Source: a virus | Virus record (IMG/VR): IMGVR_UViG_3300045988_095776 | Span: 15,135-79,134 of that record | Direction: 5' to 3' (one strand) | DNA: 64,000 nt | Shown: positions 3,514 through 52,047 of the stretch, piece by piece | How positions within the stretch are numbered: position 1 is the first letter of the stretch | Layout of the letters: the number at the start of each line of letters is the position of its first letter | Position numbers and translations under genes: made by a program | Notes under the pieces: model-generated | What the model was told of the DNA's origin: nothing | Database searches by the model: none | The model's input: the letters and a program-made list of their open reading frames with translations, nothing else

Positions 3514-6500
3514 AAATCAGCCAGCAAACCAGATTCGTATGCTGCAATCCAATTTTGCATCTCTTGGTAGAACAATAGGCTCCTTGTTCATTCCTATACT
3601 GCGAACAGTTCTTCCGTATATCAATGCAATAGTCATTGCACTTCAAAGAATGTTTGCTTATATTGCAAAATTGCTTGGAATCAAACTGTCAAACTTTGTA
3701 TCATCTACTGGCGGTATTTCTGTAGATACAAGTAACATTGCGGATGATATGGATAATGCCAGTGATTCTATTGATACTGCAAATAAGAATGCAAAAAAAC
3801 TCGAAAAAACATTGTCAGTTCTTTCATTTGATGAACTGAATCAGCTTAATGACAATTCTGATTCTGGTAGTACAAGTAATCCTTCTTCCGGTTCTGGAAA
3901 TGGTGGATTAGGACATATAGGAGCGCTTGATGCTGCATTAGATGATGCTTTGTCTGCATATCAAAAAGCATGGGATGAAGCTTTTAAAAAGATGTCCAAC
4001 AGGGCAAATAAAATGGCAGATGCCATTGTAAATGCCTTTAAGAGAAAAGACTGGAAAGGTCTTGGAAAAATCATGGCTGATGGCATCAACTGGGGTATGC
4101 AAAAACTCTATGATGCTATTAACTGGAACAAAGTAGGCCCTTACATCACTAAATTCACCAGTGCATTCACCCAGACTTTCAACAGCCTTGTTGATAATAT
4201 CAACTGGAATTTGATGGGACGCACTGTTGGCGCTGGATTAAATACTATTGTCAATATGGCAAATCAGCTTCTGGAAGGAACAGACTTCAAAAACCTTGGA
4301 AAGAAATTTGCTGAAGGCGTCACAGGATTTATTCGCGAAGTTGAATGGACTAATTTTGGCAACATGCTTGGAAACAATTTCATGAAAGCATGGGATGTGT
4401 TTACAGGATTTGTAGAAAATCTTCCGTATAACGAAATCGGTCAGGCCGTTGCGAATGGTTTAAATGGTATTTTTGAAAAAGTAGATTTTGGTGAAATCGC
4501 ACATGCGCTTGCAACCGGTTTGAATGGTGCATTTGATTCACTAGCGGCATTTACCAGTAACTTCAATTGGAATGATTTTGTTGATAACATCACAAGTGGC
4601 ATCGTGACATTTATGCAGGAATTTGACTGGAAAGAAAACGGGCAGAAACTTGAAAACTTTATCAATCATCTCTTGACGTCATTGATTGACATTGCAAAAG
4701 GCGTCGATTGGGAATCATTCGGACATAATGTAGGGGTTTTTCTGAGCCAGATAGAATGGGGCAAACATCTTTCTCGGCTTTTGACGGTTGTTGGTGATGT
4801 GCTTGGTGGAATTTGGGAAGGGCTTGGAACAACATCTGCCGGCACGTTTGTACAGGCAATGGCTGTTTTTGCTATTGGTGATAAATTAATGCCACTTGTG
4901 GATACTATCACCAAATTCTTTACAGGCGATACAGTTTTTGGAAATCTTTCTACAGCTGTGCAAAGTATGCTGAATCCCGCAATCACTGAGGCGGTAAAGA
5001 CAACTATTCCAGCACTTGGAACTTCTTTAGGAAGCCTTGTTGCAACAGGCGGTGGAATTGCTCTTGCTGTAGGCGGAGCAGTATTACTTACCAAGAAATT
5101 AGCAGGACTTTTTGAGACCATGCAAGGCGGCAATGGAATGACTACGCAATATGGCGGCTATCTGCATGATTACGCAACACAGTTGACTGATGTGGCAAAT
5201 CTTACAAACGATCAATCAGAAGCATTATGGCAGTTGATTGAAAAGGACGAAGAGCTTGGAAAGACCCACGATGAAATGTATTCTGATATGGTTGAAAAGC
5301 TAAAAGAATATGGTGTTTCAGCAGATCAGGCAAAAACAGCTCTTGAAAATTATGGTGCTCAGGCGGGTGTTTCGGCAGATTTTGTTGAGGGTATGACTAA
5401 TAAAATATCGGCACTTGGAGACGGCATGTCAGAAGCAGCATCCAAATTCGACACTTCGAAAATCAGCATTTCTGATTTGAAAGATGAGTTGTATATGCTG
5501 AGCTTGAAATCTGATGAATTTGGCGGTTCGTATAAAACTGCTATGGACGAACTTGACAATGCTAACAATGGTGGAGCAATAACCAATACTAAAGATGCTC
5601 TGGATAAAGTTTACACATCACTCAAAAATGCAGGTGTTCCACTTGATGAACTTGATAAGAAATTACGAGAAGATTTTCCAAATGCAACTGTTGTAACCAA
5701 AACGGCTGTTGAGCAGAATATAGTCGGGGCTCAGGAAACTATTTCGTCATCCGTTGCAAAAGCATCAAAAGATACCAAAACAGCTACAAGCGAAATGACA
5801 AAAAATGCAACTGACGACTTTGCAGAAATTCAAAAGCAAGCTGATACTTATATGGGAAATGTCGCTACCACAACGTCTATGAATTGGGGAAATTCTTCAC
5901 GAGAAGCAACCATAAAGGCCAGAGAGATGAAAGTAGCGGTCAGCACAGAACTTGGTAATATGGACAAATCTGTCAGAAGCCATTTCGAAAGCCAATATAA
6001 CATCGCTTATGTGAAATGGGAAAATATTGGAAGAGACATATCCAATTATATTTCCGGTACGATGAATAGTGATATAGGCAGTGCACTGGATAGCTTTGTT
6101 GATACAATCCGAAATTCTTTCAGTAATATGTATGATATTGGATACAATGCAGCACAAAGTCTTTATAGCGGCATGAAAAATGTTTCTATGCCAACATTAT
6201 CATATCGTATATCAGAATGGAAAACACATAATCTTGGAAACGGTAAAACCAGTCAAACTCCTGTTTACAGTCCTAATTGGTACGCAACAGGTGGAGTATT
6301 TACAAAGGCGTCTGTAATCGGCGTTGGCGAAGCAGGACAGGAAGCTGTTCTCCCACTGACAAACCGTAAGGTAATGAAAAGTATTGCTGATAATATCATG
6401 TCTAGCTATGACGGTAGTGCAGGTCTTTCAAAGGAAGAACTTGCAGCAGCTGTTGAACGCGGCGTGGTTACTGCGATGATGAACAACGGTGGATTTGGTG

Positions 6501-6619: not shown

Positions 6620-7449
6620 TATAACAATTGTTGTAAATGATATAATGGCGCCCCAAAAAAGTATCGGATTGAATGAATTTCGGCACTGATCGGGGCACAC
6701 TTTTTTATGATTAAAGTTTAAAAAAAGCAGTACAATTTGTACTATTTTATTCTTATTTAAAACAAAAAACAGAAAATAAGAGTATGATTTTTCAAAAAAA
6801 TGGAATAAGCCCTTATTTGGCAAAATAACGCTAAAAATCCAGAACGAGCAGTGCTAAAATGTAAATACACCGAAACTAATTTATGAATAATTTGTAAACT
6901 GTAATTTTCATTGATTTCGAAATAATTAGTTTATTTTGAAAAATAAAATTTTTTAGAAGCAAATATTCTGTCAACAATGCATTTTTGTTTACATAATATC
7001 TCAATGTAACGTTACAATAACGTTACGTGTAACGCGCTGTAACGCAATAGAATAAGAATAAGAGTAAGAATAAGAATATTAATTAATATATATGAGATAT
7101 ATATTAATCGTCGAATAAGAGCTTATTCGCCCCTGCTAAATCACTTGATCTCGTATTTGACTTTTAAAACGATTTTAAGTTTGATTCGATAAAATCCTTG
7201 ATAAAAGGATAAAAATTGATTTTAGGCATAAATTTCGAACGCACAAGGGCATTATAGAACATAAAACATGTTGCCGAATTAATTTTCCGTAGTCTTTCAA
7301 ATTGCTTTACTATTCATACTGAAACATACTTCATGTATGTGATAAAATGAAAAATCATAAAGCGTCTATCAGAGTAAGAACAATAGGCGCTATTTTTATG
7401 CATGTAACGTCCTTTATAGGGCGTTTTTTATTTTTATGAGGTATTTAGC

Positions 7450-42383: not shown

Positions 42384-44054
42384 ATGAACATATATTATGC
42401 AAGGGAAAGATTAAGGACAGGATCTATTTTTGACCTAAAGTTAAAAGTGGCATATTACGCAAGAGTTAGCACGGAAAAAGTGGAGCAGCAGGTATCTATC
42501 AAGCACCAGCAAGAATATTACGAGGAATTTATTCGTTCAAATCAGAATTGGACTTTTTCGGGAGCATATATTGACGATGGAATATCTGGAATCCATGCCG
42601 AAAAGAGAGAGGAATTTCAGAATATGATTCGAGATGCAAAGCTCGGAAGAGTAGATATGATCATCACGAAAGAGATTTCCAGATTTGCCAGAAACACGCT
42701 TGACAGCATTCAATATACCAGAGAACTACTGTCCTATGGAGTTTGTGTATGGTTTCAAAACGACGGGATTAATACCATTGACGAGGACAGCGAATTACGT
42801 TTGACAATTATGGCAGGCGTTGCGCAAGATGAACTTCGAAAACTTTCGAGCCGTATCAAATTCGGACATGCAAGGTCAATTCAGAACGGAGTTGTGCTTG
42901 GAAATCGAATATACGGATATCACAAGAAAGACGGGAAACTCACTATAGTTCCTGAAGAAGCTGAAATGATTAGGATGATATTCAGAGATTACGCATCGGG
43001 AACCATGTCTACCCCTAAATTAGAAAAGAAATTATGGGACATGGGGTACAGGAACTTCAAGGGTGGAAAAATAAACAGAGATGTTATCAGGAATATTATC
43101 AAAAACCCCAAATATAAAGGATATTTTTGCGGTGGAAAAGTGAAGATTGTCGATATGTTTACCAAAAAGCAAGAATTCCTGCCAGAATCCAAATGGGTAA
43201 TATTTAAGGATGACGGGAGCCGGGTACCTCAAATCATAGACGAAGAAACATGGGAAAAGGCGAATGAGTATATGAAGAAGAGAAGTGAAGCTATAAAATC
43301 TCATCGAACTTCGTTTAAAAACGGAAATCTCTTCACGGGTAAAATTTTTTGCGCTAATGATGGCGCTCCGTACTGGATGAAGCAGCATTATGTACGCGGA
43401 AAAGAAGATGTGAGATGGGTATGCAGTTACAAAATCAAAAATGGAGCGGATTCTTGCAGTTCACACGGTATCAGAGAGTCTGATTTAAAGAAAGTGGTCG
43501 CAAGCCTTATCAACGAATCTTCATGTAATATAGATGAAGTTATCAAGGAATACTTAAATATAATAAGAAAAGTTATTAATAATAAGCCGGATACGGGCAT
43601 TGAAAAAGAAAGGCTTCAAAACCAGATTGATGCAATAAAAAAGAAGAAAGAAAAAATACTGGAATATAACCTTAATGGAAATATTCCGGACGAAGAGTTT
43701 ATATCAAGGAATAAGGACTACACAAAACAAATCATTGATTTGGAGATGGAAATTTCGAAATTAGTCCCGGAAGATGTCGAACTACAAATAACAGAAAAAC
43801 AACTTTCGAAAATCACAGAGGAACTAAAAAGTTTTAAAGAAGTAAAAGAAGAAGATATAAATCGCCAAATTATTGATAAGCTTTTTGACAAAATAGTTGT
43901 GTCGTTGTCGGCGGATAAACAAACCGTGTGCAAATTCTATTTAAGCACTGGATGCTTGAAAATACGGGATTTGGGTGGGGTTGTTCTGAATACATGTTAT
44001 TTAACAATACGTAAGAACGACACAAGGCATTTTATAGGCGAACTTGTAGCTTAA
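42384..44054 (+). CDS. large serine recombinase (probable phage integrase)
   Basis: Resolvase catalytic domain (VAYYARVSTEKVEQQ...ITKEISRFARNT), a recombinase domain, a Zn ribbon and a coiled coil. 556 aa. Confidence 0.85.
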   Translation: MNIYYARERLRTGSIFDLKLKVAYYARVSTEKVEQQVSIKHQQEYYEEFIRSNQNWTFSGAYIDDGISGIHAEKREEFQNMIRDAKLGRVDMIITKEISRFARNTLDSIQYTRELLSYGVCVWFQNDGINTIDEDSELRLTIMAGVAQDELRKLSSRIKFGHARSIQNGVVLGNRIYGYHKKDGKLTIVPEEAEMIRMIFRDYASGTMSTPKLEKKLWDMGYRNFKGGKINRDVIRNIIKNPKYKGYFCGGKVKIVDMFTKKQEFLPESKWVIFKDDGSRVPQIIDEETWEKANEYMKKRSEAIKSHRTSFKNGNLFTGKIFCANDGAPYWMKQHYVRGKEDVRWVCSYKIKNGADSCSSHGIRESDLKKVVASLINESSCNIDEVIKEYLNIIRKVINNKPDTGIEKERLQNQIDAIKKKKEKILEYNLNGNIPDEEFISRNKDYTKQIIDLEMEISKLVPEDVELQITEKQLSKITEELKSFKEVKEEDINRQIIDKLFDKIVVSLSADKQTVCKFYLSTGCLKIRDLGGVVLNTCYLTIRKNDTRHFIGELVA

Positions 44055-44115
44055 AAATAGCCCGCAAACACTGATATTTACTGGTTTTTTAACACATTTA
44101 ACAGGAGTGGAATCA

Positions 44116-44862
44116 ATGAATAATACGCATACCGCATATGACGTAATGAAAGAATATTTAATAACCGATGCAGAGCTTGACGGGCTGTACCAGATACCGA
44201 TGTTGCCGAAGTCAGATGCCGTACCGGGCAAAGGAATAGATTTCGTATCTTCAAAAGCCAGATCATTGAAAGGCCATAAGGACCTGACCGTGAATTTCTA
44301 TATCGACGATAAAAGTTTCTTGCAGGTATGGAATCAACCGGATCAGTATATCGAACACCTGAAATGTTTCAATTCAGTTTGCAGCCCAGATTTCACAATT
44401 GCTTCCGGGATGCCAAGTGCGTTGAATATCTACAACCTATACCGTAATCATGCGTTGGGGTATTACTGGTCGATGATGGACGTTAACATCATTCCGTCCG
44501 TAAATATTATTAGTCCAAAGGAAATGCCATGGATATTTGACGGCACGCCGCATAGAAGTGTAGTATCGTGCTGCACGAATGGCAGAGTACGGTCGAAATC
44601 TGCCAGAATGGAATTTTGCGAGAATTTTAAGGAAATGCTGGATGCGATTAAACCAACTAAGGTTGTGATCGTGGGTATCGTGCCGGATGAATTAAATGTA
44701 GACGTACCAATTATCAATCTTAACTCAAGGAGTCAGAATATGAAAGAAATATATGGAAAGGAGCAGCAGGCATGGGAACAATCAGCCAAGATGCGGCAAA
44801 ACGCAGAAAAAAAGAAACAAGCCGGCAGAAGAGAAGAAGAACCAAGATTGCTGGTGCCGTAA
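44116..44862 (+). CDS. DUF4417-like protein
   Basis: Pattern CSPDFT...NLYRNHALGYYW...IIPSV resembles DUF4417, from memory. ATG 44116 is preferred over GTG 44107. Confidence 0.5.
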   Translation: MNNTHTAYDVMKEYLITDAELDGLYQIPMLPKSDAVPGKGIDFVSSKARSLKGHKDLTVNFYIDDKSFLQVWNQPDQYIEHLKCFNSVCSPDFTIASGMPSALNIYNLYRNHALGYYWSMMDVNIIPSVNIISPKEMPWIFDGTPHRSVVSCCTNGRVRSKSARMEFCENFKEMLDAIKPTKVVIVGIVPDELNVDVPIINLNSRSQNMKEIYGKEQQAWEQSAKMRQNAEKKKQAGRREEEPRLLVP

Positions 44863-45760
44863 GAAGAAAAAATATGAAAAATGATGAGCTGAATGTGTTA
44901 AAATGAAAAATTCACATCGCGCCGAGATACATTATAGAAAATTATATACAAAATGCACAAAATAAAAAAGTCGCAGGTCTGAATTAGTCTCAGATTTCTG
45001 CGATTTTTTTCAGATTTTTCCAGTTCAAACCACCCCGATTTTGATGATGTTTCTGACTTGTCGTACATTTCCTTGGTGTTCTCGTTCCGTCCCGGAGCTA
45101 TCCCGGGAACCTTCAGCCGATCAGGAACAGACCGCCCAGTGAACCAATATAAGCTCCGCCGCCCGGCATGATCTGGCGGACTAGAGCCAAGCAGAGAGTC
45201 AACAGTACAGCCCACCGGGGATGACCCGAGAGCAGCCCGGGAACAGCTGTGGAAGTGCAGAGCCAGCGCCAATGCCAATTCTGATATAGCGTTGTAAAAC
45301 GCGTTTAAAAGCGTTTTTGCGCAACCACGGTAAAATATACAGAAAACGAATAAAACACGCTTAAAAATCCAAATACGGCGTTATAGAAGCATTTAAGGCA
45401 CAACCGCCCAAGCAAAAACGCCTAAAGCGTACAGAAATAAGACCGCCGGAGCGATCACGAACAAACCCCCGCATAGCTTCGTACGATCCGGAAGCATAAA
45501 GACCAGACCGGGCAAAGCGTCCGCGCAACTATACAGAATAATAATAACCCCGTTGTGCTCTGCCGTCAATCCTTGTTATCAATTCGATATTTGAAGATTT
45601 AAGGCGGTTTTATATACTTATGATAAAATATACCAGAATCACGCTAAAAGCCGTTAAAACGTCAAATAGAAGCCAATGCAACTATACGGCTACAATCTCA
45701 ATCGCAGCCTGTTCTAATTTTTTTCTTTTAGCTTTTGACATAATACCACCCCCCCCCTAT

Positions 45761-46060
45761 TTAACAAATGCCAAGTGATGCCAAAAAATCAGTATTAACA
45801 TTTTCCCAGTAACCCGGAATAAGAGAAGAACGGCCACAAATATGCATAAGCCCGTATAAGTGCCGCCGCAGGTTTTTGACGCCGCACCAGACAGACGCAC
45901 CGCAGCCGGAGCCTTCGACAGGAATACTATACACAGTCCCGCCATGTTCCCATAAATCCCAATTACTGCCATCATTGGCAATAAAAACGCCATTTTCGAC
46001 TATTTCCCGGGCATGATCGCACCAAATAGCGCCCATTTCTGAATAATTATATTTTCTCAT
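45761..46060 (-). CDS. hypothetical protein (GC-rich island)
   Basis: 99 aa with a purine-rich RBS. Codon usage differs from neighbouring genes. Confidence 0.4.
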   Translation of the reverse strand: MRKYNYSEMGAIWCDHAREIVENGVFIANDGSNWDLWEHGGTVYSIPVEGSGCGASVWCGVKNLRRHLYGLMHICGRSSLIPGYWENVNTDFLASLGIC

Positions 46061-46106
46061 TTCTTTCTTTCCTTCTTCCTTTTACCCATGGGAGCCGGGT
46101 TATAAA

Positions 46107-46148
46107 AGGCGTTGCCGGGAATCGAACCCGGTGGGAACCGTTACGCCT
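46107..46148 (-). other. tRNA-like acceptor/T-arm minihelix, probably acting as a terminator
   Basis: The minus strand reads AGGCGT AACGGTTCCCA CCGGG TTCGATT CCCGG CA ACGCCT, followed by TTTTAT. Confidence 0.5.
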
Positions 46149-46153
46149 GAAAA

Positions 46154-46522
46154 CTAAATCCTTTTTGTAAACTCGATTTCCGTATATTTTTCCCCGGTCA
46201 CCTCGTTTACAAATGCCAAAATTCCGGTTCTTGTGAAATCCAAACGTGAAAAATCAAATCCCTTTTGCGCAAGTCTATATTCATAAGAACGCCCGCAGCC
46301 CTCAGTGTCGTAGTATGTGCCGTCGACATGTAACGCGTTAGGTTGCACCATTGGGCACCCTTTTTTATTTGCGTCGCGTCTCTGGTAGCCGCCAAAATCT
46401 GCAACAACGTGCAGACCGTCCAGCGTGTCAAATTCTGCACGAACTCTACAATTCGGCACGTCTGAGCCGTTTCCGTAGCCTGTTCCCGTGCATCCATATT
46501 CTACTAATGTTAATTTTTTCAT
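46154..46522 (-). CDS. hypothetical protein
   Basis: Starts at MKKLTLVEYG with an AAGGAGGA RBS. The longer track ORF upstream has no RBS. Confidence 0.55.
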   Translation of the reverse strand: MKKLTLVEYGCTGTGYGNGSDVPNCRVRAEFDTLDGLHVVADFGGYQRRDANKKGCPMVQPNALHVDGTYYDTEGCGRSYEYRLAQKGFDFSRLDFTRTGILAFVNEVTGEKYTEIEFTKRI

Positions 46523-46680
46523 GTTTTTAATCCTCCTTAATAACCAATTAAAATATAATGAGCAACCAACAGGAACGGGAAAGAAACAGCCGCAAAGCCT
46601 AACAAGTAGGCTTTTGCGGTATGAATAACTTTTCTTCGATGGATTCGCTGCCACTGGGAATAGGTATATTTTTTCACGGT

Positions 46681-47076
46681 TCATACCTCCATTTCTTTGT
46701 GTGCTTCGTCAAAATCTTCTTCGAGATCGTCCAGCACTTCAGAAATTGCGGAGCCTAATAAGTAACATCTAATAGAAACGTCAATAGATTCGAAATTATC
46801 ATTCATCCACCAGTCACACACTTGTTTTTTACAATCAAATTCGCTAACCATTTCGTTAACAAGTTCTTTGTTACTGTTTACGTAATTTTCAGCTGTGGCA
46901 CGATTAAAGGTATAACTTCCGCTTGCATTACCTGTCACGCTGTCTTCTGCCCAAAGTTCATCATTCAATTTTTCTTCCAGTTCTTCCAGGCTGTCAAAAT
47001 CTGTGAAATCAATTTCACAATCAATATAATTTTTAACATCTTCTTTTACTGCTTCCATGTAATTGTATTTTGTCAT
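46681..47076 (-). CDS. highly acidic protein (possible DNA mimic / anti-restriction candidate)
   Basis: 131 aa, rich in Asp and Glu. SVTGNASGSYTFN motif. Confidence 0.5.
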   Translation of the reverse strand: MTKYNYMEAVKEDVKNYIDCEIDFTDFDSLEELEEKLNDELWAEDSVTGNASGSYTFNRATAENYVNSNKELVNEMVSEFDCKKQVCDWWMNDNFESIDVSIRCYLLGSAISEVLDDLEEDFDEAHKEMEV

Positions 47077-47317
47077 TGTTTTTTACCTTGCGCCCTGTTA
47101 CAATAAGAACGCCCTTTCTTTTTTATTTTTGGGTGCCGGTTGTCTGTCTTGGTAGGATGCAACCGGCTTTTTTATTTCCTTTGATGGTTATATAATAGCA
47201 TAGTTTAATAATAATGTCAATAGCATAGTTTAATAAAATGTATTATTTTTAAAATAGTGTTTTTTCTGCACATATAATAGGAAATAAAAAAATATCGAAA
47301 TAAAAACCCATAGCCGA

Positions 47318-47346
47318 TTGACGCATAGTTTAATAAATGATATAAT
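47318..47346 (+). promoter_or_regulatory. near-consensus sigma-70 promoter with embedded CATAGTTTAATAA operator
   Basis: TTGACG, 17 nt, TATAAT; 30 nt upstream of the RHH gene. Confidence 0.7.
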
Positions 47347-47376
47347 CAAAGCAAACAATAACAGGAGGGTTAATAA

Positions 47377-47571
47377 ATGGCATTTAAAGAGAAAGAAAAG
47401 GAACTTTCATATATTGCACAATATCAAAAAGACAAGTACGACCGTATAACAGTAATGGCACCAAAGGGAACCAAGGAAGACGTAAAAAGAGCAGCCGATC
47501 TAAAAGGCGTCAAGATGTCTGCATTCGTTCTGGAGTGCATACAGAAAGAATTGGAAAGAATGAAAAATTAG
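47377..47571 (+). CDS. RHH-like small regulator
   Basis: 64 aa. YDRITVMAPKGTKEDVKRAADLKGVKMSAFVLECIQKELE. Confidence 0.55.
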   Translation: MAFKEKEKELSYIAQYQKDKYDRITVMAPKGTKEDVKRAADLKGVKMSAFVLECIQKELERMKN

Positions 47572-47592
47572 AAGAATAGTTTAATAAAATAC

Positions 47593-47621
47593 TTGACGCA
47601 TAGTTTAATAAATGATATACT
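47593..47621 (+). promoter_or_regulatory. duplicate of the 47318 promoter
   Basis: TTGACGCATAGTTTAATAAATGATATACT is identical to the first copy through the spacer; the two -10 hexamers differ only at position 5 (TATAAT vs TATACT). Confidence 0.7.
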
Positions 47622-47647
47622 GTAACCATAGAAAGGAAGTGGTTGCA

Positions 47648-48145
47648 GTGAAAACAGAACAATTTAGGATTAATGAAAATTCTGATTTCCCGGGTGTCTA
47701 TATAATTGTAAATATGGACAATCAAAAAGTATATATTGGCTCAACTAGAAATATACACAAAAGATTGAAAACGCATTTATATAGCCTAAAAAAAGGGAAA
47801 CATTCGTCAAGTAGTTTTCAAAAAGATTTTGATAATGGTAATTCATTTATCGCATATCCTCTAACAAGAGTTGAGCTATTGCCAAAGTATTTAAAGGACC
47901 ATAATTTAAGACATTTTGAATACATGGCGATTAAAATGTTTGATTCTACGAATCCAGAAAAAGGATACAACAAAGTAAACCACAAAGCAGAATCATACGA
48001 ATTAGGAAATATAAAGCAAGCGAATTCTTTATTTAACGATTTCTTTGAAGTGAAAGAAAAATACAAAACGAGAACAGACTTGGAATATTATAAAGAATAC
48101 TACGAAGAAGAATTAGAATTTTTCTTAAATCAGGCTATGCGTTAA
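47648..48145 (+). CDS. GIY-YIG family nuclease
   Basis: GVYIIVNMDNQKVYIGSTRNIHKRLKTH. GTG 47648 after GAAAGGAAG. The track start 47612 overlaps the -10 box. Confidence 0.65.
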   Translation: MKTEQFRINENSDFPGVYIIVNMDNQKVYIGSTRNIHKRLKTHLYSLKKGKHSSSSFQKDFDNGNSFIAYPLTRVELLPKYLKDHNLRHFEYMAIKMFDSTNPEKGYNKVNHKAESYELGNIKQANSLFNDFFEVKEKYKTRTDLEYYKEYYEEELEFFLNQAMR

Positions 48146-48190
48146 AGAAACCAATCACACAGCCCCAGGAGGGGCGGAAAGGAGGGGAAA

Positions 48191-48472
48191 ATGGAATATT
48201 TAGTTAATGAGAAACGCAACAACCAGTTCTTTCCGAGAAACTGTATTTACATCCCGGAAAACTACCCGGAGGACTGGCGGGAACGCCTTGAAGCTGGCGA
48301 GGTTGTCAGCTACGAGGAGGACGGCGAGCAGTGCGAAATCTGGCTCGATATGGAACAAGAAGAAAGTCATAAACCATGTATACATGTACTTGATAATATG
48401 ATATGTGGGAAAGGCGTAAAAAGCTCTGGAAAATGTGAGCCACCATGTAGTTACTATGAAAGTGGCAGATAA
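48191..48472 (+). CDS. hypothetical acidic protein
   Basis: 93 aa with a GGAGGGG RBS. Confidence 0.5.
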   Translation: MEYLVNEKRNNQFFPRNCIYIPENYPEDWRERLEAGEVVSYEEDGEQCEIWLDMEQEESHKPCIHVLDNMICGKGVKSSGKCEPPCSYYESGR

Positions 48473-48534
48473 AATTTAGCTTTTAAGTCACTTTTATATG
48501 CGATATAAATATATTAAAAGATTGGAGAATAATT

Positions 48535-48729
48535 GTGAAGAAAACAATTGATTTATTAAATGAAGTTGTAGCAATGGGATTCAACAGAGAACAGGCACTT
48601 GCAGACATCGACGCAAGCCTTGACGCAGAACTCGAAGAAAGAAAGCCATTGATGGAGGAAGAAATACCAGAAAATTTGTACAATAATATCCTTGAAGGAT
48701 TCCGAGAAGATAAGGAAATGAACGCATGA
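48535..48729 (+). CDS. hypothetical acidic protein
   Basis: 64 aa. GTG start after GGAG. ATGA-coupled to the next gene. Confidence 0.45.
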   Translation: MKKTIDLLNEVVAMGFNREQALADIDASLDAELEERKPLMEEEIPENLYNNILEGFREDKEMNA

Positions 48730-49415
48730 AAGCAGTGATGATACAAGGGCATATGGACGTCGCCCGGTTTTCAATACTGGGATGGAATGGCAAGCGGGGC
48801 GAAACATACCCGCTTCCGCCTTTCTCTACAGTTGCTGGGATGGTTCATTTTCTTTGCAGGTGGGACAGTTGGCACGGCATGAAAATATCTGTAGCCGGAA
48901 ACGGAGTCATGAACAAGCCAGAAATTTGCATGAGGTGGCGCGGCGGAGCTGTCGCAGGATCAGAGACAGAGGAGTTTAAGCAGCGTTTTCCGGTCAGGGT
49001 AAAATCTGGGGATTCTTTTGTGGGCTGGGTTAATACACCGATTTATGAAAGCATGGTGTCTGATCTGGACTTGAGATTGCATATTATGCCGGAAAATCAG
49101 AAAGAAGTTGATGTGATCTGCAGAAAGATTCTGAATCCCCGGACATTTCCAAGTCTGGGACGGCATGAGGACTTGATAAGAATTGACGACGTGCAGGTTG
49201 TTAACGTTTTGCCAGCACAGGAAATGACGCTTGATATGTGCACTTATGCACCGGCTACGGCAGAAACGCCCGGAACTGTTTACGCAGTTCATAAAGATTA
49301 TACGATCAGCAAGGGAAAGCGAAGATTTAATGATGTTCGAGTGAAATATTTAGATAGAGGAACGAAAGTAATTACAGATTGTGATAATTTAAACAATCCT
49401 TGCTTTTTCATCTGA
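48726..49415 (+). CDS. solitary Cas5-like RAMP protein (tentative)
   Basis: 229 aa. N-terminus VMIQGHMDVARFSILGWNGKRGETYPLPPFSTVAGMV matches the Cas5 N-terminal pattern (F.....TYP.PP.ST..G). Later FPSLGRHEDLIRI. No other cas genes or array were seen. Confidence 0.45.
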   Translation: MKAVMIQGHMDVARFSILGWNGKRGETYPLPPFSTVAGMVHFLCRWDSWHGMKISVAGNGVMNKPEICMRWRGGAVAGSETEEFKQRFPVRVKSGDSFVGWVNTPIYESMVSDLDLRLHIMPENQKEVDVICRKILNPRTFPSLGRHEDLIRIDDVQVVNVLPAQEMTLDMCTYAPATAETPGTVYAVHKDYTISKGKRRFNDVRVKYLDRGTKVITDCDNLNNPCFFI

Positions 49416-49523
49416 TCTATAGTATTATTTAAGCAACAATTACTGATGTAATTGAATGTAAATTTAAAATGGTACTGAATAAGTGCAAATTTTAATATTT
49501 CCATTTTGGAAAGACGCAAAATA

Positions 49524-49553
49524 AGCCCCTGGGAAATAGTCCTGGGGGCTTTT
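49524..49553 (+). terminator. rho-independent terminator
   Basis: AGCCCCTGGGA-aatag-TCCTGGGGGCT, followed by TTT. Confidence 0.6.
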
Positions 49554-49785
49554 GCTGTCTTATTCTGGCGGCGTAACGACGGCGCGGCACTCAGCCGGTA
49601 AACAGCCCCACCGCCGAAGCTGTTATAACACATATATCACAAAACCGCCGAAGTTGTCAAGCAAAATTTTTTTATTTTGGGACTTGATTTTTAAAACCGA
49701 TGTGGATAAAATAAAAAATAACGACAGGCGACGGAACTCAGGACGGGAGCTGCAAGCCAGAGCGTGAAAAAAATATTGATTAATC

Positions 49786-49828
49786 AGCCAGATCAAGCCG
49801 GACAAAGTACCGGAAGGTCTGGCTTTTT
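49786..49828 (+). terminator. rho-independent terminator
   Basis: AGCCAGA...TCTGGCT with an inner CCGG/CCGG helix, followed by TTTTT. Confidence 0.6.
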
Positions 49829-50206
49829 GTGTTTAATAGCCAGAAAATGACCGTATTACATAACGTATAAGTATATAATAACTGGTTTTATAAACCCGTC
49901 CTAGATTCCAGAGACCTAGAGTTTATTAATATATATGCTATACAGTACTGTATAGATATATAGAGTTAATAAGAGTAATGTAACGGTAAAAATAAAATTA
50001 AATAGACTGTTGACAGTGATATAAAAGTATGATAAAACAGAGTTAACAATTGAATAAGCCGAAAGGCAATAAGAGATAATAAGACTATTTAAGACGATTA
50101 AAACCGAGCAGATCGGAAAGAAGAAAGGGATTTAGAAAGGTCCCGGAATGTATCTGCGAACGTGTTTTGTCGTCTTTTTTTATTTCAATTTTTGGGAGGT
50201 GATACA

Positions 50207-50815
50207 GTGAAAAAGAGTAATACAACAGTAACAGAACAGGGAATAGAAGTATATGAGAATGATATATACAGGCTTGTGGATGAATATATAAACACTGTGT
50301 TACAAGTAACTCCTGAAGAATTTGATACACAGAAAGAATATAAAGCTACTGTTGCTGATAGTTTTGTTGATATGATCTTTTATATTGCTGATAGAATACC
50401 GAAGCCAAGTAATGATGATATAGAGTTACTGGATAATATATTTAATATATTTGTCAGGGTATGTAGTAAATACAATGTGTTACCGACATTAGAAGTATTT
50501 AGCTTTTTAGTTAATATTAATCGGTCAACATTTAGTGATTGGATGCGTGGGGACTATAGAACAAGCTCAACGCATGGCACCACGGTTAAAAAATGGTTCG
50601 ATGTCTGCAAGAATTGTACAGTCAATAGATTGAATAACCAGCCTGGCACAAATGCCAACTTGATTTTTGTTGCAAAAGCAGCCTACGGAATGGCAGAGAC
50701 AGCACCAGTTCAGACAGCACAGCAGGACGGCATACCACACCAGACAGCGCAGCAGATCGCAGATAAACACAGGGCGGCGCTGGAGCTTCCAGAGATGGAA
50801 AGACCGGAGCTGTAA
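50207..50815 (+). CDS. terminase small subunit-like DNA-binding protein (tentative)
   Basis: GTG after GGGAGGTG. The HTH-like LEVFSFLVNINRSTFSDWMRG and NLIFVAKAAYGM resemble TerS proteins. It lies 9 kb from TerL. Confidence 0.4.
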   Translation: MKKSNTTVTEQGIEVYENDIYRLVDEYINTVLQVTPEEFDTQKEYKATVADSFVDMIFYIADRIPKPSNDDIELLDNIFNIFVRVCSKYNVLPTLEVFSFLVNINRSTFSDWMRGDYRTSSTHGTTVKKWFDVCKNCTVNRLNNQPGTNANLIFVAKAAYGMAETAPVQTAQQDGIPHQTAQQIADKHRAALELPEMERPEL

Positions 50816-51274
50816 CAGAATAAAAGCCCAGAAATGTACATGAGCGACGGACAAACAGCCAAGAAATAAGGATAATTAGTGAAGATTATGCAGTATGTAC
50901 ATATATACAGTTTTAAATTGTGCAATATGTATATCAATCTATATAAAAAACTGTTGTTTTTCTTATAGATGTAATATTCTGACAATTATCTGCTATATAT
51001 TTCATCCTTGACCACTGCCGCAGGCTATTAAAGGTCAGCGTCCGGCATGGATACCGGGGAGGGGGTGTATATAAGCCCCAGCACACACCGAGTGAGTACT
51101 CCGAGTTCCCGAAAAATTAAAAAAGCCTCCTCTAACAGCAAGGCTTAAAAATTCCAAAAAAACAAAAAAAGAGTTCACCATGGCAGAGATAGTGATTGCA
51201 ACACGATAAGCCATAAGCCTTAATGGTTTCTCTGCCATAAACAACAAGGCGATATCAGAAAGGCAGGTATAAAT

Positions 51275-51664
51275 ATGAAAATAGGATATGCAAAAGAGTC
51301 AGGCATTTGGTTTCCATTGTCTGCAAAGAAAAAGATACTTTTGAACGAAGAAATTGACACATTTGTTTGCGACTCAATAGATGAAAATAATAATTTCGAA
51401 CATCTTTGTGAAAAAATGAGAAATGGTGATTCTTTGATTATTTGCGGAGTTGATGACATTGGAAATACCAAGGATGAAATCGAAGAAACATGGAGACGAC
51501 TCCGTGATTTGAATATTGAAATTTATGTGCTTACAGCTCCGATGTTGTTTCAGAGAGAAAACATGACGTTAGAAGAATCATTTATAAGAGACTTGTCGCT
51601 TAGCGTACTTGCTTCTCAGGTTGAAATTGCTAATCAGAAATTAAAAGCAATAAATGATTTATGA
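51275..51664 (+). CDS. resolvase N-terminal-domain-like protein without a DNA-binding domain
   Basis: MKIGYAKES aligns with MKIGYARVS. DDIGN replaces the usual DRLGR arginines. Confidence 0.45.
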   Translation: MKIGYAKESGIWFPLSAKKKILLNEEIDTFVCDSIDENNNFEHLCEKMRNGDSLIICGVDDIGNTKDEIEETWRRLRDLNIEIYVLTAPMLFQRENMTLEESFIRDLSLSVLASQVEIANQKLKAINDL

Positions 51665-51698
51665 TAACCATTTACATTCACAGAAGGGTAGGAACAAG

Positions 51699-51911
51699 AT
51701 GGAGAAAATAGTAAACAACGATGGATATCTTCGGTCAGGGCTGATGGATATTGCTAGACAGTTGCTGAATATCTGTAGCGAAACTGGTGTTTCTAATATT
51801 CAGATAGCCACATCACCTTGGAAAGAAGGTGAAGGGATTACACTTTTAGCAAAAGCTGATGATAAACCAATCCTTTCAGTAAAGATGGACACTGCCTATG
51901 AAAAAGAATAA
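51699..51911 (+). CDS. hypothetical protein
   Basis: ATG 51699 after AGGGTAGGAACAAG. Confidence 0.4.
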   Translation: MEKIVNNDGYLRSGLMDIARQLLNICSETGVSNIQIATSPWKEGEGITLLAKADDKPILSVKMDTAYEKE

Positions 51912-52047
51912 CCCACAAGGCGAATCAATCCGAATCCGGCTTACAGGACAGCTAGAACGAAAGCTCATAGCCGAAAAGAATCGAACCGGTAAAAGCGTAT
52001 CGCAGATCACAAGGGAAGCCCTGGCAGAATATTTTCGGAGAAGGTAG
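51898..52047 (+). CDS. RHH (CopG-like) protein, 49 aa
   Basis: ESIRIRLTGQLERKLIAEKNRTGKSVSQITREALAEYF. Confidence 0.5.
   Translation: MKKNNPQGESIRIRLTGQLERKLIAEKNRTGKSVSQITREALAEYFRRR

Follow-up and report, generated by a model that had tools for sequence, protein, structure and literature searches.

A viral Cas5 homologue and an adjoining crRNA-like RNA gene in a putative anti-type I-B operon of gut phages

What use can a phage make of a gene resembling cas5, i.e., the gene for one subunit of the Cascade complex, when the rest of a CRISPR-Cas system is missing around it? The question is raised by the IMG/VR record IMGVR_UViG_3300045988_095776, a complete virus of 79,134 bp with direct terminal repeats, of which bases 15135-79134 constitute the 64,000-nt stretch analysed here and called the window. 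At positions 48726-49415 of the window, a first-pass annotation had pointed to a solitary Cas5-like gene closing an operon under a ribbon-helix-helix (RHH) regulator, and had suggested that such a lone protein could sequester the 5' handles of CRISPR RNAs (crRNAs) or poison the assembly of Cascade. In the present analysis, the gene product, hereafter vCas5, is found to be a diverged Cas5b homologue directly followed by a gene for a crRNA-like RNA, and the region 47194-49556 is probably an anti-type I-B module of a temperate human-gut phage, where a Cas5 mimic comparable to the anti-CRISPR (Acr) protein AcrIB3 and a guide RNA comparable to the viral RNAs named Cracrs would complement each other under a single switch of the anti-CRISPR-associated (Aca) type.

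A diverged Cas5b homologue in a phage context

The open reading frame (ORF) of 229 aa at 48726-49415 exists with exactly the translation first quoted (it lies, like the other parts of 47194-49556, on the + strand), and its ATG start overlaps the stop codon of an upstream ORF encoding a 64-aa acidic protein (ATGA). The proposed resemblance to Cas5 was upheld by profile matches as well as by fold comparison. As regards profiles, vCas5 matched two PADLOC Cas5b models with E=1e-21 and 2e-18 (models without a curated cut-off), NCBIfam TIGR01895 with E=7e-18 but at 65 bits under a curated cut-off of 96.7 bits, and Pfam Cas_Cas5d (PF09704) with E=0.002 at 18.5 bits against a cut-off of 23; by curated score, the protein thus stays outside both TIGR01895 and PF09704. 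As regards structure, the AlphaFold2 model built from 20 homologues (pLDDT 88, pTM 0.80) is predicted to adopt the repeat-associated mysterious protein (RAMP) fold of Cas5: the top 31 matches returned by Foldseek from the PDB are all type I Cascade or stand-alone CRISPR-associated entries, headed by named Cas5 chains of I-B, I-E, I-C, and I-A Cascades, with 8fcj_A as best match (E=2e-7, TM 0.58/0.62).

Respective to bacterial sequences, the Cas5 proteins of two Lachnospiraceae I-B hosts align to the vCas5 ORF with 28-34% identity (tblastn, E=7e-22 and 1e-27). The N-terminal signature and the later motif from which the resemblance had originally been recognised, namely TYPLPP.ST..GM.H and SLGR.ED, are both common to bacterial Cas5b and are included in 39 positions conserved in viral and bacterial Cas5b alike; vCas5 may bind the crRNA 5' handle within Cascade. 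Six positions are fixed in each group with differing residues (e.g., F88 in vCas5 vs. H, and W71 vs. Y), and residues 72-86 or so of vCas5 form a segment peculiar to the viral proteins. In a tree of 18 viral Cas5 and 28 bacterial Cas5b from Lachnospiraceae, Clostridia, Bacilli, and Listeria, the two groups are separated by a single 100/100 branch, with a combined stem of about 1.3 changes/site and an internally deep viral group; this long, well-supported branch and the internal depth argue for an old viral lineage rather than a recent capture.

As stated earlier by the first-pass annotation, no other cas genes accompany the gene, tblastn with Cas6, Cas8b, Cas7, Cas3, Cas4, and Cas1 of two Lachnospiraceae I-B hosts giving only E>0.4 across the 79,134 bp. 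In the relatives too, cas6, cas8b, cas7, and cas3 are missing alongside; the cas5 homologue stands in a phage context in every case, and its ORF is intact in all fetched relatives (40-95% identity). While vCas5 shares its predicted fold and core motifs with bacterial Cas5b (TIGR01895, PF09704), it differs from it in its scores under the curated cut-offs, in the lack of neighbouring cas6, cas8b, cas7, and cas3, and in its separate long-branch clade.

The crRNA-like RNA gene adjoining vCas5

The view of vCas5 as solitary and without an array had to be revised. A multi-repeat CRISPR array is indeed absent from the window and the phage genome (repeat searches), yet the search for a repeat-like sequence in 49416-49560, which the first-pass annotation had itself recommended, revealed a crRNA-like unit directly after the vCas5 stop codon, i.e., a one-unit mini-array at 49437-49556. 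The unit was detected by aligning the ORF-free stretch with three related phage loci and then checked in 80 IMG/VR relatives. The encoded RNA of about 120 nt (fold z=-7.6) is composed, from 5' to 3', of a 7-bp stem-loop, CAATTAC-TGAT-GTAATTG, at 49437-49454 (anchored-stem test and folding), which adjoins the 8-nt type I-B 5' handle ATGTAAAT at 49456-49463, situated within AATGTAAAT (repeat comparison), a 25-nt pseudo-spacer, TTAAAATGGTACTGAATAAGTGCAA, at 49464-49488 (unit parsing), a pseudo-repeat, ATTTTAATATTTCCATTTTGGAA, at 49489-49511, with a TTCCA/TGGAA hairpin, and an intrinsic terminator at 49524-49556 (terminator scan and folding). The pseudo-repeat equals positions 1-23 of the I-B repeat, namely the 3' handle, without the ATGTAAAT end. 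Once joined, the two repeat parts give ATTTTAATATTTCCATTTTGGAATGTAAAT, to be compared with GTTTTAATAGAGCCATACTGGAATGTAAAT, GTTTTAATAAGACCATAGTGGAATGTAAAT, and GATTTAATAGAAACATAGTGGAATGTAAAT, i.e., genuine I-B repeats from bacterial cas loci; as judged from these sequences, the RNA is derived from an I-B repeat.

The succession of a repeat 3' end, a short spacer, and repeat nt 1-23 amounts to the layout of a single crRNA, the period of 65-67 nt in genuine I-B arrays implying spacers of 35-37 nt. The 5' stem-loop takes the place of the repeat hairpin and is presumed to be the site of Cas6 recognition and cleavage. Upstream, a weak promoter-like site, TTGCTT-17-TATTAT, was noticed by eye at 49400-49428, under the threshold of the promoter scan, and in sister clades the corresponding position is taken by TTGACA-17-TATTAT or by an extended -10. 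The RNA could also be transcribed by read-through from the operon.

Conservation of the RNA unit is extensive, since it is present in 83/83 close relatives, from which 99 units were parsed, some loci bearing two of them; over the relatives at large, two to four units occur. The handle is invariant, with GAATGTAAA identical in all 99 units, and a stem of 5-7 bp stands exactly before AATGTAAA in 96 of them, while stems reaching 5 bp and 6 bp occur in 10% and 3.7% of shuffled sequences, respectively. Across clades, ten distinct stem sequences with compensatory changes were counted (e.g., CAATTAC/GTAATTG, CAGTTAC/GTAACTG, CGTCAT/ATGACG, CATCAT/ATGATG, and CAGGCG/CGCCTG). Conservation of the stem was established by an anchored-stem test, RNAalifold having missed it as MAFFT had misaligned the clades. 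vCas5 and the RNA are neighbours at each of the 83 close loci and also in more distant lineages, as far as about 47% protein identity and, among four deeper viral Cas5 lineages, the RNA was found in L220 and L222. With a homologue of 40% identity, L011 has a variant with AATGTAAC handles; in this sequence from uncultured Clostridiales UMGS680, a repeat-like motif, CCAnAATGTAAC, whose handle ending differs, recurs two or three times 3' of the Cas5 homologue (6700-6840), perhaps as a mini-array that belongs to a further I-B repeat variant.

Guide targets, mode of action, and known counterparts

In many genuine I-B loci, a standalone CreR-like mini-array adjoins cas6, about 3.5 kb upstream of cas5 (L012-L088), and this arrangement near cas6 is already known (Shmakov et al., bioRxiv 10.1101/2023.03.03.530964). 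In 14 out of the 15 loci examined, which span Lachnospiraceae, Clostridia, Bacilli, and Marinitoga, the CreR-like pseudo-spacers match a site that is flanked by CCA or CCT and lies at a distance of 100-200 bp, over 11-21 nt proximal to the protospacer adjacent motif (PAM). Several of these CreR-like elements finish in TGGAAAG, like the phage units.

Comparable matches were found for phage units in two relatives of the window phage. Two prophages in metagenome-assembled genomes of Candidatus Eisenbergiella encode a Cas5 homologue 48% identical to vCas5 and, directly after it, true mini-arrays, one with two units and one with four, whose pseudo-spacers of 16-18 nt are variants of each other. For prophage L010, the 4.1-Mb host genome G002 holds a complete I-B locus, and pseudo-spacer 3 (TTAATTATTGTTTATTTC) matches over 15 contiguous nt a site about 100 bp upstream of the G002 cas6, namely CCA followed by TTAATTATTGTTTATATT, the matched promoter site reading CCA followed by TTAATTATTGTTTAT. 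Three copies of the 15-mer exist in G002, two in the prophage array and one at this promoter site, which pseudo-spacer 3 fits better than does the host's own CreR-like RNA. In L222, the pseudo-spacer ATTAAGTTGTTTTTAATG matches a cas-promoter site of Faecalicatena contorta, CCA followed by ATTAAATTGTTTTTAA, with a sole mismatch in the first 17 nt, at position 6, the base of which is flipped out by Cascade. In the sister clade of the window, five of the first 18 positions vary, namely 6, 12, 13, 14, and 18. Every sixth position (6, 12, and 18) belongs to this variable set (hypergeometric P=0.012), and position 6 shows all four bases. Both pairs (L010 with G002 and L222 with F. contorta) thus share at least the 9 PAM-proximal nt expected of a Cracr, and the RNA may act in these two relatives as a guide to the host cas6 promoter, in agreement with the Cracr mechanism as published.

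As a side observation, G002 retains its own CreR-like mini-array (L182; G002:C78, about 5100-5140 (-) and 6347 (-)) alongside the prophage array (L010, 2140-2400). Prophage mini-arrays were described as co-occurring only with systems devoid of their own (Shmakov et al., bioRxiv 10.1101/2023.03.03.530964); the pattern in G002, with a host CreR-like unit and a prophage array on one site, is the opposite.

The window's own pseudo-spacer departs from the other 46 in its clade at position 3, where they read G, and at position 8, where they read A; all remaining variation is confined to positions 21 and 22. This near-invariance over 47 units, whereas loops and terminator vary, argues for a sequence-specific role.

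Taken as a mechanism, the module would operate as follows. The RHH repressor, together with the duplicated promoter and its operators, would control the operon in the manner of acr-aca loci. By analogy with AcrIB3, vCas5 would take the position of the host Cas5 at the crRNA 5' handle and so be built into the host Cascade, resulting in a defective complex. Host Cas6 would cut the phage RNA at the base of its 5' stem, leaving the handle ATGTAAAT, and, with a 25-nt pseudo-spacer some 12 nt below the length of host spacers, about two fewer Cas7 subunits would be accommodated. The phage RNA would then compete with immune crRNAs for the Cas proteins and, if the matches in the two relatives are a guide, could bring Cascade to a site with a CCW flank within the promoter of the host cas6, where it would tighten the CreR-type autorepression and switch cas expression off, as in the Cracr mechanism. 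In such a division of labour, the protein would deal with Cascade now assembling, while the RNA would stop resupply and shield the prophage in lysogeny, which matches the published logic that silencing protects lysogens whereas Acrs are needed against pre-formed complexes. Respective to the initial suggestion of a lone Cas5 poisoning Cascade, poisoning as such is in keeping with the Cas5b homology, the acr/aca-like operon, and the AcrIB3 precedent, but the gene is not alone; the adjoining crRNA-like RNA, aimed at the cas promoter in relatives, points to a protein-plus-RNA module, of which handle sequestration would be at best a part.

Several results weigh against a module of a Cascade-joining mimic and a promoter-directed guide. 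AcrIB3 blocks the DNA binding of Cascade and a Cracr requires it, so that side-by-side action is not readily explained. The RNA unit is absent from L221 and L223, two deep vCas5 lineages, and Clostridium perfringens phages with I-B mini-arrays have no Cas5 homologue at E<1e-5, from which it follows that each part can exist alone; the pairing of vCas5 with the RNA is frequent, not obligatory. The pseudo-spacer holds a small conserved hairpin, GTACT/AGTGC (AGTAC in one variant), and structure may therefore outweigh target pairing, with a structural or decoy role being possible. Finally, no target of the pseudo-spacer was found in any of the four sequence sets searched, the genus Blautia_A as such not having been among them. 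In detail, no match with a CC PAM rose above shuffles in the phage's own genome, the 400 Lachnospiraceae genomes gave 11 matches against about 6 in the control, none near cas genes, and the 11 matches in JGI metagenome contigs and the 7 in IMG/VR all stopped at the edge of the pattern; with the sister-clade pattern, the 400 Lachnospiraceae genomes gave 4 matches against about 14 in the control. Concerning the host, 931 spacers from bacterial arrays yielded only chance matches of up to 17 nt to the phage genome, their longest match to related viral loci being 22 nt with one mismatch in a single locus, and homologues of the integrase were found on contigs of viral size only. The close relatives L100, L108, L134, and L135 are listed as 'cas5, CAS-I-B' with Blautia_A as predicted host in Table S3 of Katz et al. 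(bioRxiv 10.1101/2023.06.24.545427).

The conflict over DNA binding would disappear if protein and RNA formed an obligate ribonucleoprotein (RNP), where vCas5 would cap the 5' handle of the phage guide and perhaps help its maturation, and where a hybrid, shortened Cascade with host Cas7, Cas8b, and Cas6 would silence the cas promoter without being able to license Cas3. Cas5 is the Cascade subunit that holds the crRNA 5' handle, and this function, the core motifs retained in vCas5, the adjacency of gene and RNA from the 83 close loci down to lineages of about 47% identity, and a short spacer recalling the AcrIF24/Cracr solution all suit an RNP. On the other hand, the phage handle does not differ from that of the host, which leaves no visible specificity, and both L221 and L223, with vCas5 and no RNA, and the I-B viral mini-arrays without Cas5 speak against an obligate association, which is rather unlikely on balance, though the foremost of the alternatives.

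The conserved hairpin and the target not found in the searched collections would also agree with a pure decoy, i.e., an RNA of the window's clade without DNA target, serving as a sink for Cas6, Cas7, and Cas5 in the way of the RNAs named Racrs, with vCas5 as a separate Acr. The phage RNA resembles Racrs as a repeat mimic of phage origin by which Cas6 and Cas7 would be engaged, and in that a protein Acr can be encoded on the same transcript, an example among Racrs being RacrIC1 together with AcrIC5 (PMC10651486). But RacrIF1 works because it is devoid of the 5' handle, by which Cas5 and Cas8 are excluded (Camara-Wilpert et al., Nature 2023, PMC10651486), and the phage unit, far from being a lone repeat mimic without handle or spacer, has a perfect handle, a spacer-length insert of 25 nt, and a second partial repeat. 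A sequence left near-invariant in 47 units while loops and terminator vary, as well as the clear promoter matches in two relatives, hardly befit a mere sink, and the target searches did not cover the predicted host genus Blautia_A; a pure decoy is deemed quite improbable. Even less credit, to the point of being very improbable, can be given to a mini-CRISPR acting against rival phages via host Cas proteins, or to a decaying remnant of a phage-borne CRISPR-Cas system. Prophage-borne I-B arrays do occur in Clostridia. Virus-borne mini-arrays directed against rival viruses are also known (PMC6858448). However, a protospacer was not found in IMG/VR, where all 7 matches ended at the pattern edge, the spacer is short and conserved instead of variable, the terminal repeat is without handle, and a deep viral clade with the ORF intact in all fetched relatives does not look like decay.

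The proposed module of mimic and guide can be set against its known counterparts. On the protein side, AcrIB3 from mobile elements of Listeria seeligeri is a tested Cas5 homologue that joins the Listeria Cascade and stops DNA engagement (Katz et al., 'Diverse viral cas genes antagonize CRISPR immunity', bioRxiv 10.1101/2023.06.24.545427), reported in a study which lists 358 orphan viral cas genes. Like AcrIB3, vCas5 is a full-length Cas5b homologue carried by a mobile element, outside CRISPR-Cas loci and in an acr-type locus, and falls in a clade apart from true Cas5. It differs in coming from gut Lachnospiraceae phages instead of Listeria, and in its 28-34% identity to two host Cas5b, where AcrIB3 has 38% to Listeria Cas5. 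By analogy with AcrIB3, it is proposed that vCas5 could inhibit type I-B interference by joining Cascade. Two Listeria 'phage' records, OR846720 and OR848150, were considered as a source of orphan Cas5 and rejected, as they hold a whole cas operon, and so was P0064 as an AcrIB3-type orphan, being a genuine Listeria Cas5 within a cas operon; the first record (L205, OR846720.1, 'Listeria phage LM 4-11-1', UNVERIFIED_ORG) contains a complete cas8b-cas7-cas5-cas3 operon and probably derives from host DNA or from wrong binning of the contig.

On the RNA side, Cracrs are viral crRNA-like RNAs that vie for Cas proteins and redirect these to cas promoters, and are often multiplexed, with short spacers, and linked to protein Acrs (Liu et al., bioRxiv 10.1101/2024.10.29.618823), while I-B mini-arrays were described in C. 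perfringens phages (Shmakov et al., bioRxiv 10.1101/2023.03.03.530964). The phage unit resembles both in being viral, in its succession of pseudo-repeat, short pseudo-spacer, and pseudo-repeat derived from the cognate repeat, in its position outside cas loci, and in being multiplexable. As with Cracrs, its spacer is shorter than immune spacers, it is linked to a putative protein Acr, and its seed, in two relatives, fits the site upstream of cas6, flanked by a PAM, at which the host CreR-like RNA is aimed. It is distinguished by its partner, a Cas5 homologue, and by the replacement, in the gut-phage clades, of the first repeat by an unrelated strong stem of 5-7 bp, the handle only being kept.

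What is already known, then, is the gene family as orphan viral cas5 (Table S3 of Katz et al., activity untested), Cas-mimicking Acrs, and viral I-B mini-arrays. Apparently unreported are the crRNA-like RNA beside a viral cas5 and the pairing of the two, of which no mention was found in the literature searched: the text of Katz et al. has no repeat-like or crRNA-like RNA, mini-array, solitary repeat, or Racr beside cas5, and the term 'Cas5' occurs nowhere in Liu et al. and Shmakov et al., a count to which the candidate table of Liu et al. does not belong. The module would join two recent counter-defence strategies, namely a Cas-protein mimic and a crRNA-like silencing RNA, in a compact and widely conserved unit of phages abundant in the human gut. 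With a protein partner that is the very Cascade subunit holding the RNA 5' handle, the question arises whether the two act separately or as one RNP reprogramming Cascade and, in the latter case, the host CRISPR machinery would become a phage-programmed repressor. More generally, 'orphan' viral cas genes passed by array-finders can conceal one-unit mini-arrays, and the natural design, with its strong stem, 8-nt handle, and guide of 16-30 nt, offers a template for compact type I-B guides for CRISPR interference.

The operon and its neighbourhood

The duplicated promoter, the repeated operators, and the RHH regulator announced by the first-pass annotation are all present. Operator repeats, AATAGCATAGTTTAATAA, lie at 47194 and 47219 (sequence and repeat scan), and five to six copies of the operator motif CATAGTTTAATAA are present, some of them set between the hexamers of the two promoters, i.e., P1 (TTGACG-17-TATAAT, 47318-47346) and P2 (TTGACG-17-TATACT, 47593-47621), the latter being an 85% copy of P1 with the shared operator (promoter scan). 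These near-identical promoters flank the gene at 47377-47571 for an Arc/RHH-like repressor of 64 aa (phrog_582, Arc-like repressor, E=2.8e-4; phrog_13890, E=2e-9; weak match to Pfam TacA1), likely an Aca-type autoregulator, and the layout would correspond to the usual acr-aca arrangement.

Four genes are driven by P2, vCas5 being the last. The first, at 47612-48145, is homing-endonuclease-like with a GIY-YIG domain (Pfam GIY-YIG, E=4e-9; PHROG homing endonuclease); present in L007, L220, and L224 and absent from L003 and L004, it has the patchy occurrence of a mobile insert, and is probably a selfish one within the putative anti-defence operon. It is followed by a 93-aa ORF at 48191-48472, without family match in Pfam and PHROG, and by the acidic protein of 64 aa (pI 4.2) at 48535-48729, without Pfam, PHROG, or Cas similarity. 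The latter is about 70% identical across clades whose Cas5 homologues share only 48-57%, and is also encoded in an Eisenbergiella prophage; such conservation makes it a candidate partner of the module or a separate Acr and, being co-conserved and translationally coupled, it may be a third component. Its interpretation as a C-terminal Cas8b or Cas11-like fragment was ruled out (BLASTP E>=0.57). The acidic protein forms more than 550 clusters at 90% identity among gut-phage contigs, and is named 'UBA-like domain protein' in some third-party annotation records of NCBI.

Downstream of vCas5, the ORF-free stretch of some 750 nt previously reported was retrieved at 49416-50161, with two terminator-like sites. 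Rfam gave nothing meaningful over 44000-52000. Besides the crRNA-like unit, the stretch comprises a second terminator-bounded unit at 49560-49830, which shows no repeat-like motif, a modest fold only (z=-2.1), and no Rfam match, and which is absent from L113 and L136-L144. Kept in most relatives, this second unit has a promoter-like site at 49684-49712, a terminator at 49786-49828, a GGCGGCG...CCGCCGCC hairpin, and a conserved GGAACTCAGGAGGGG block.

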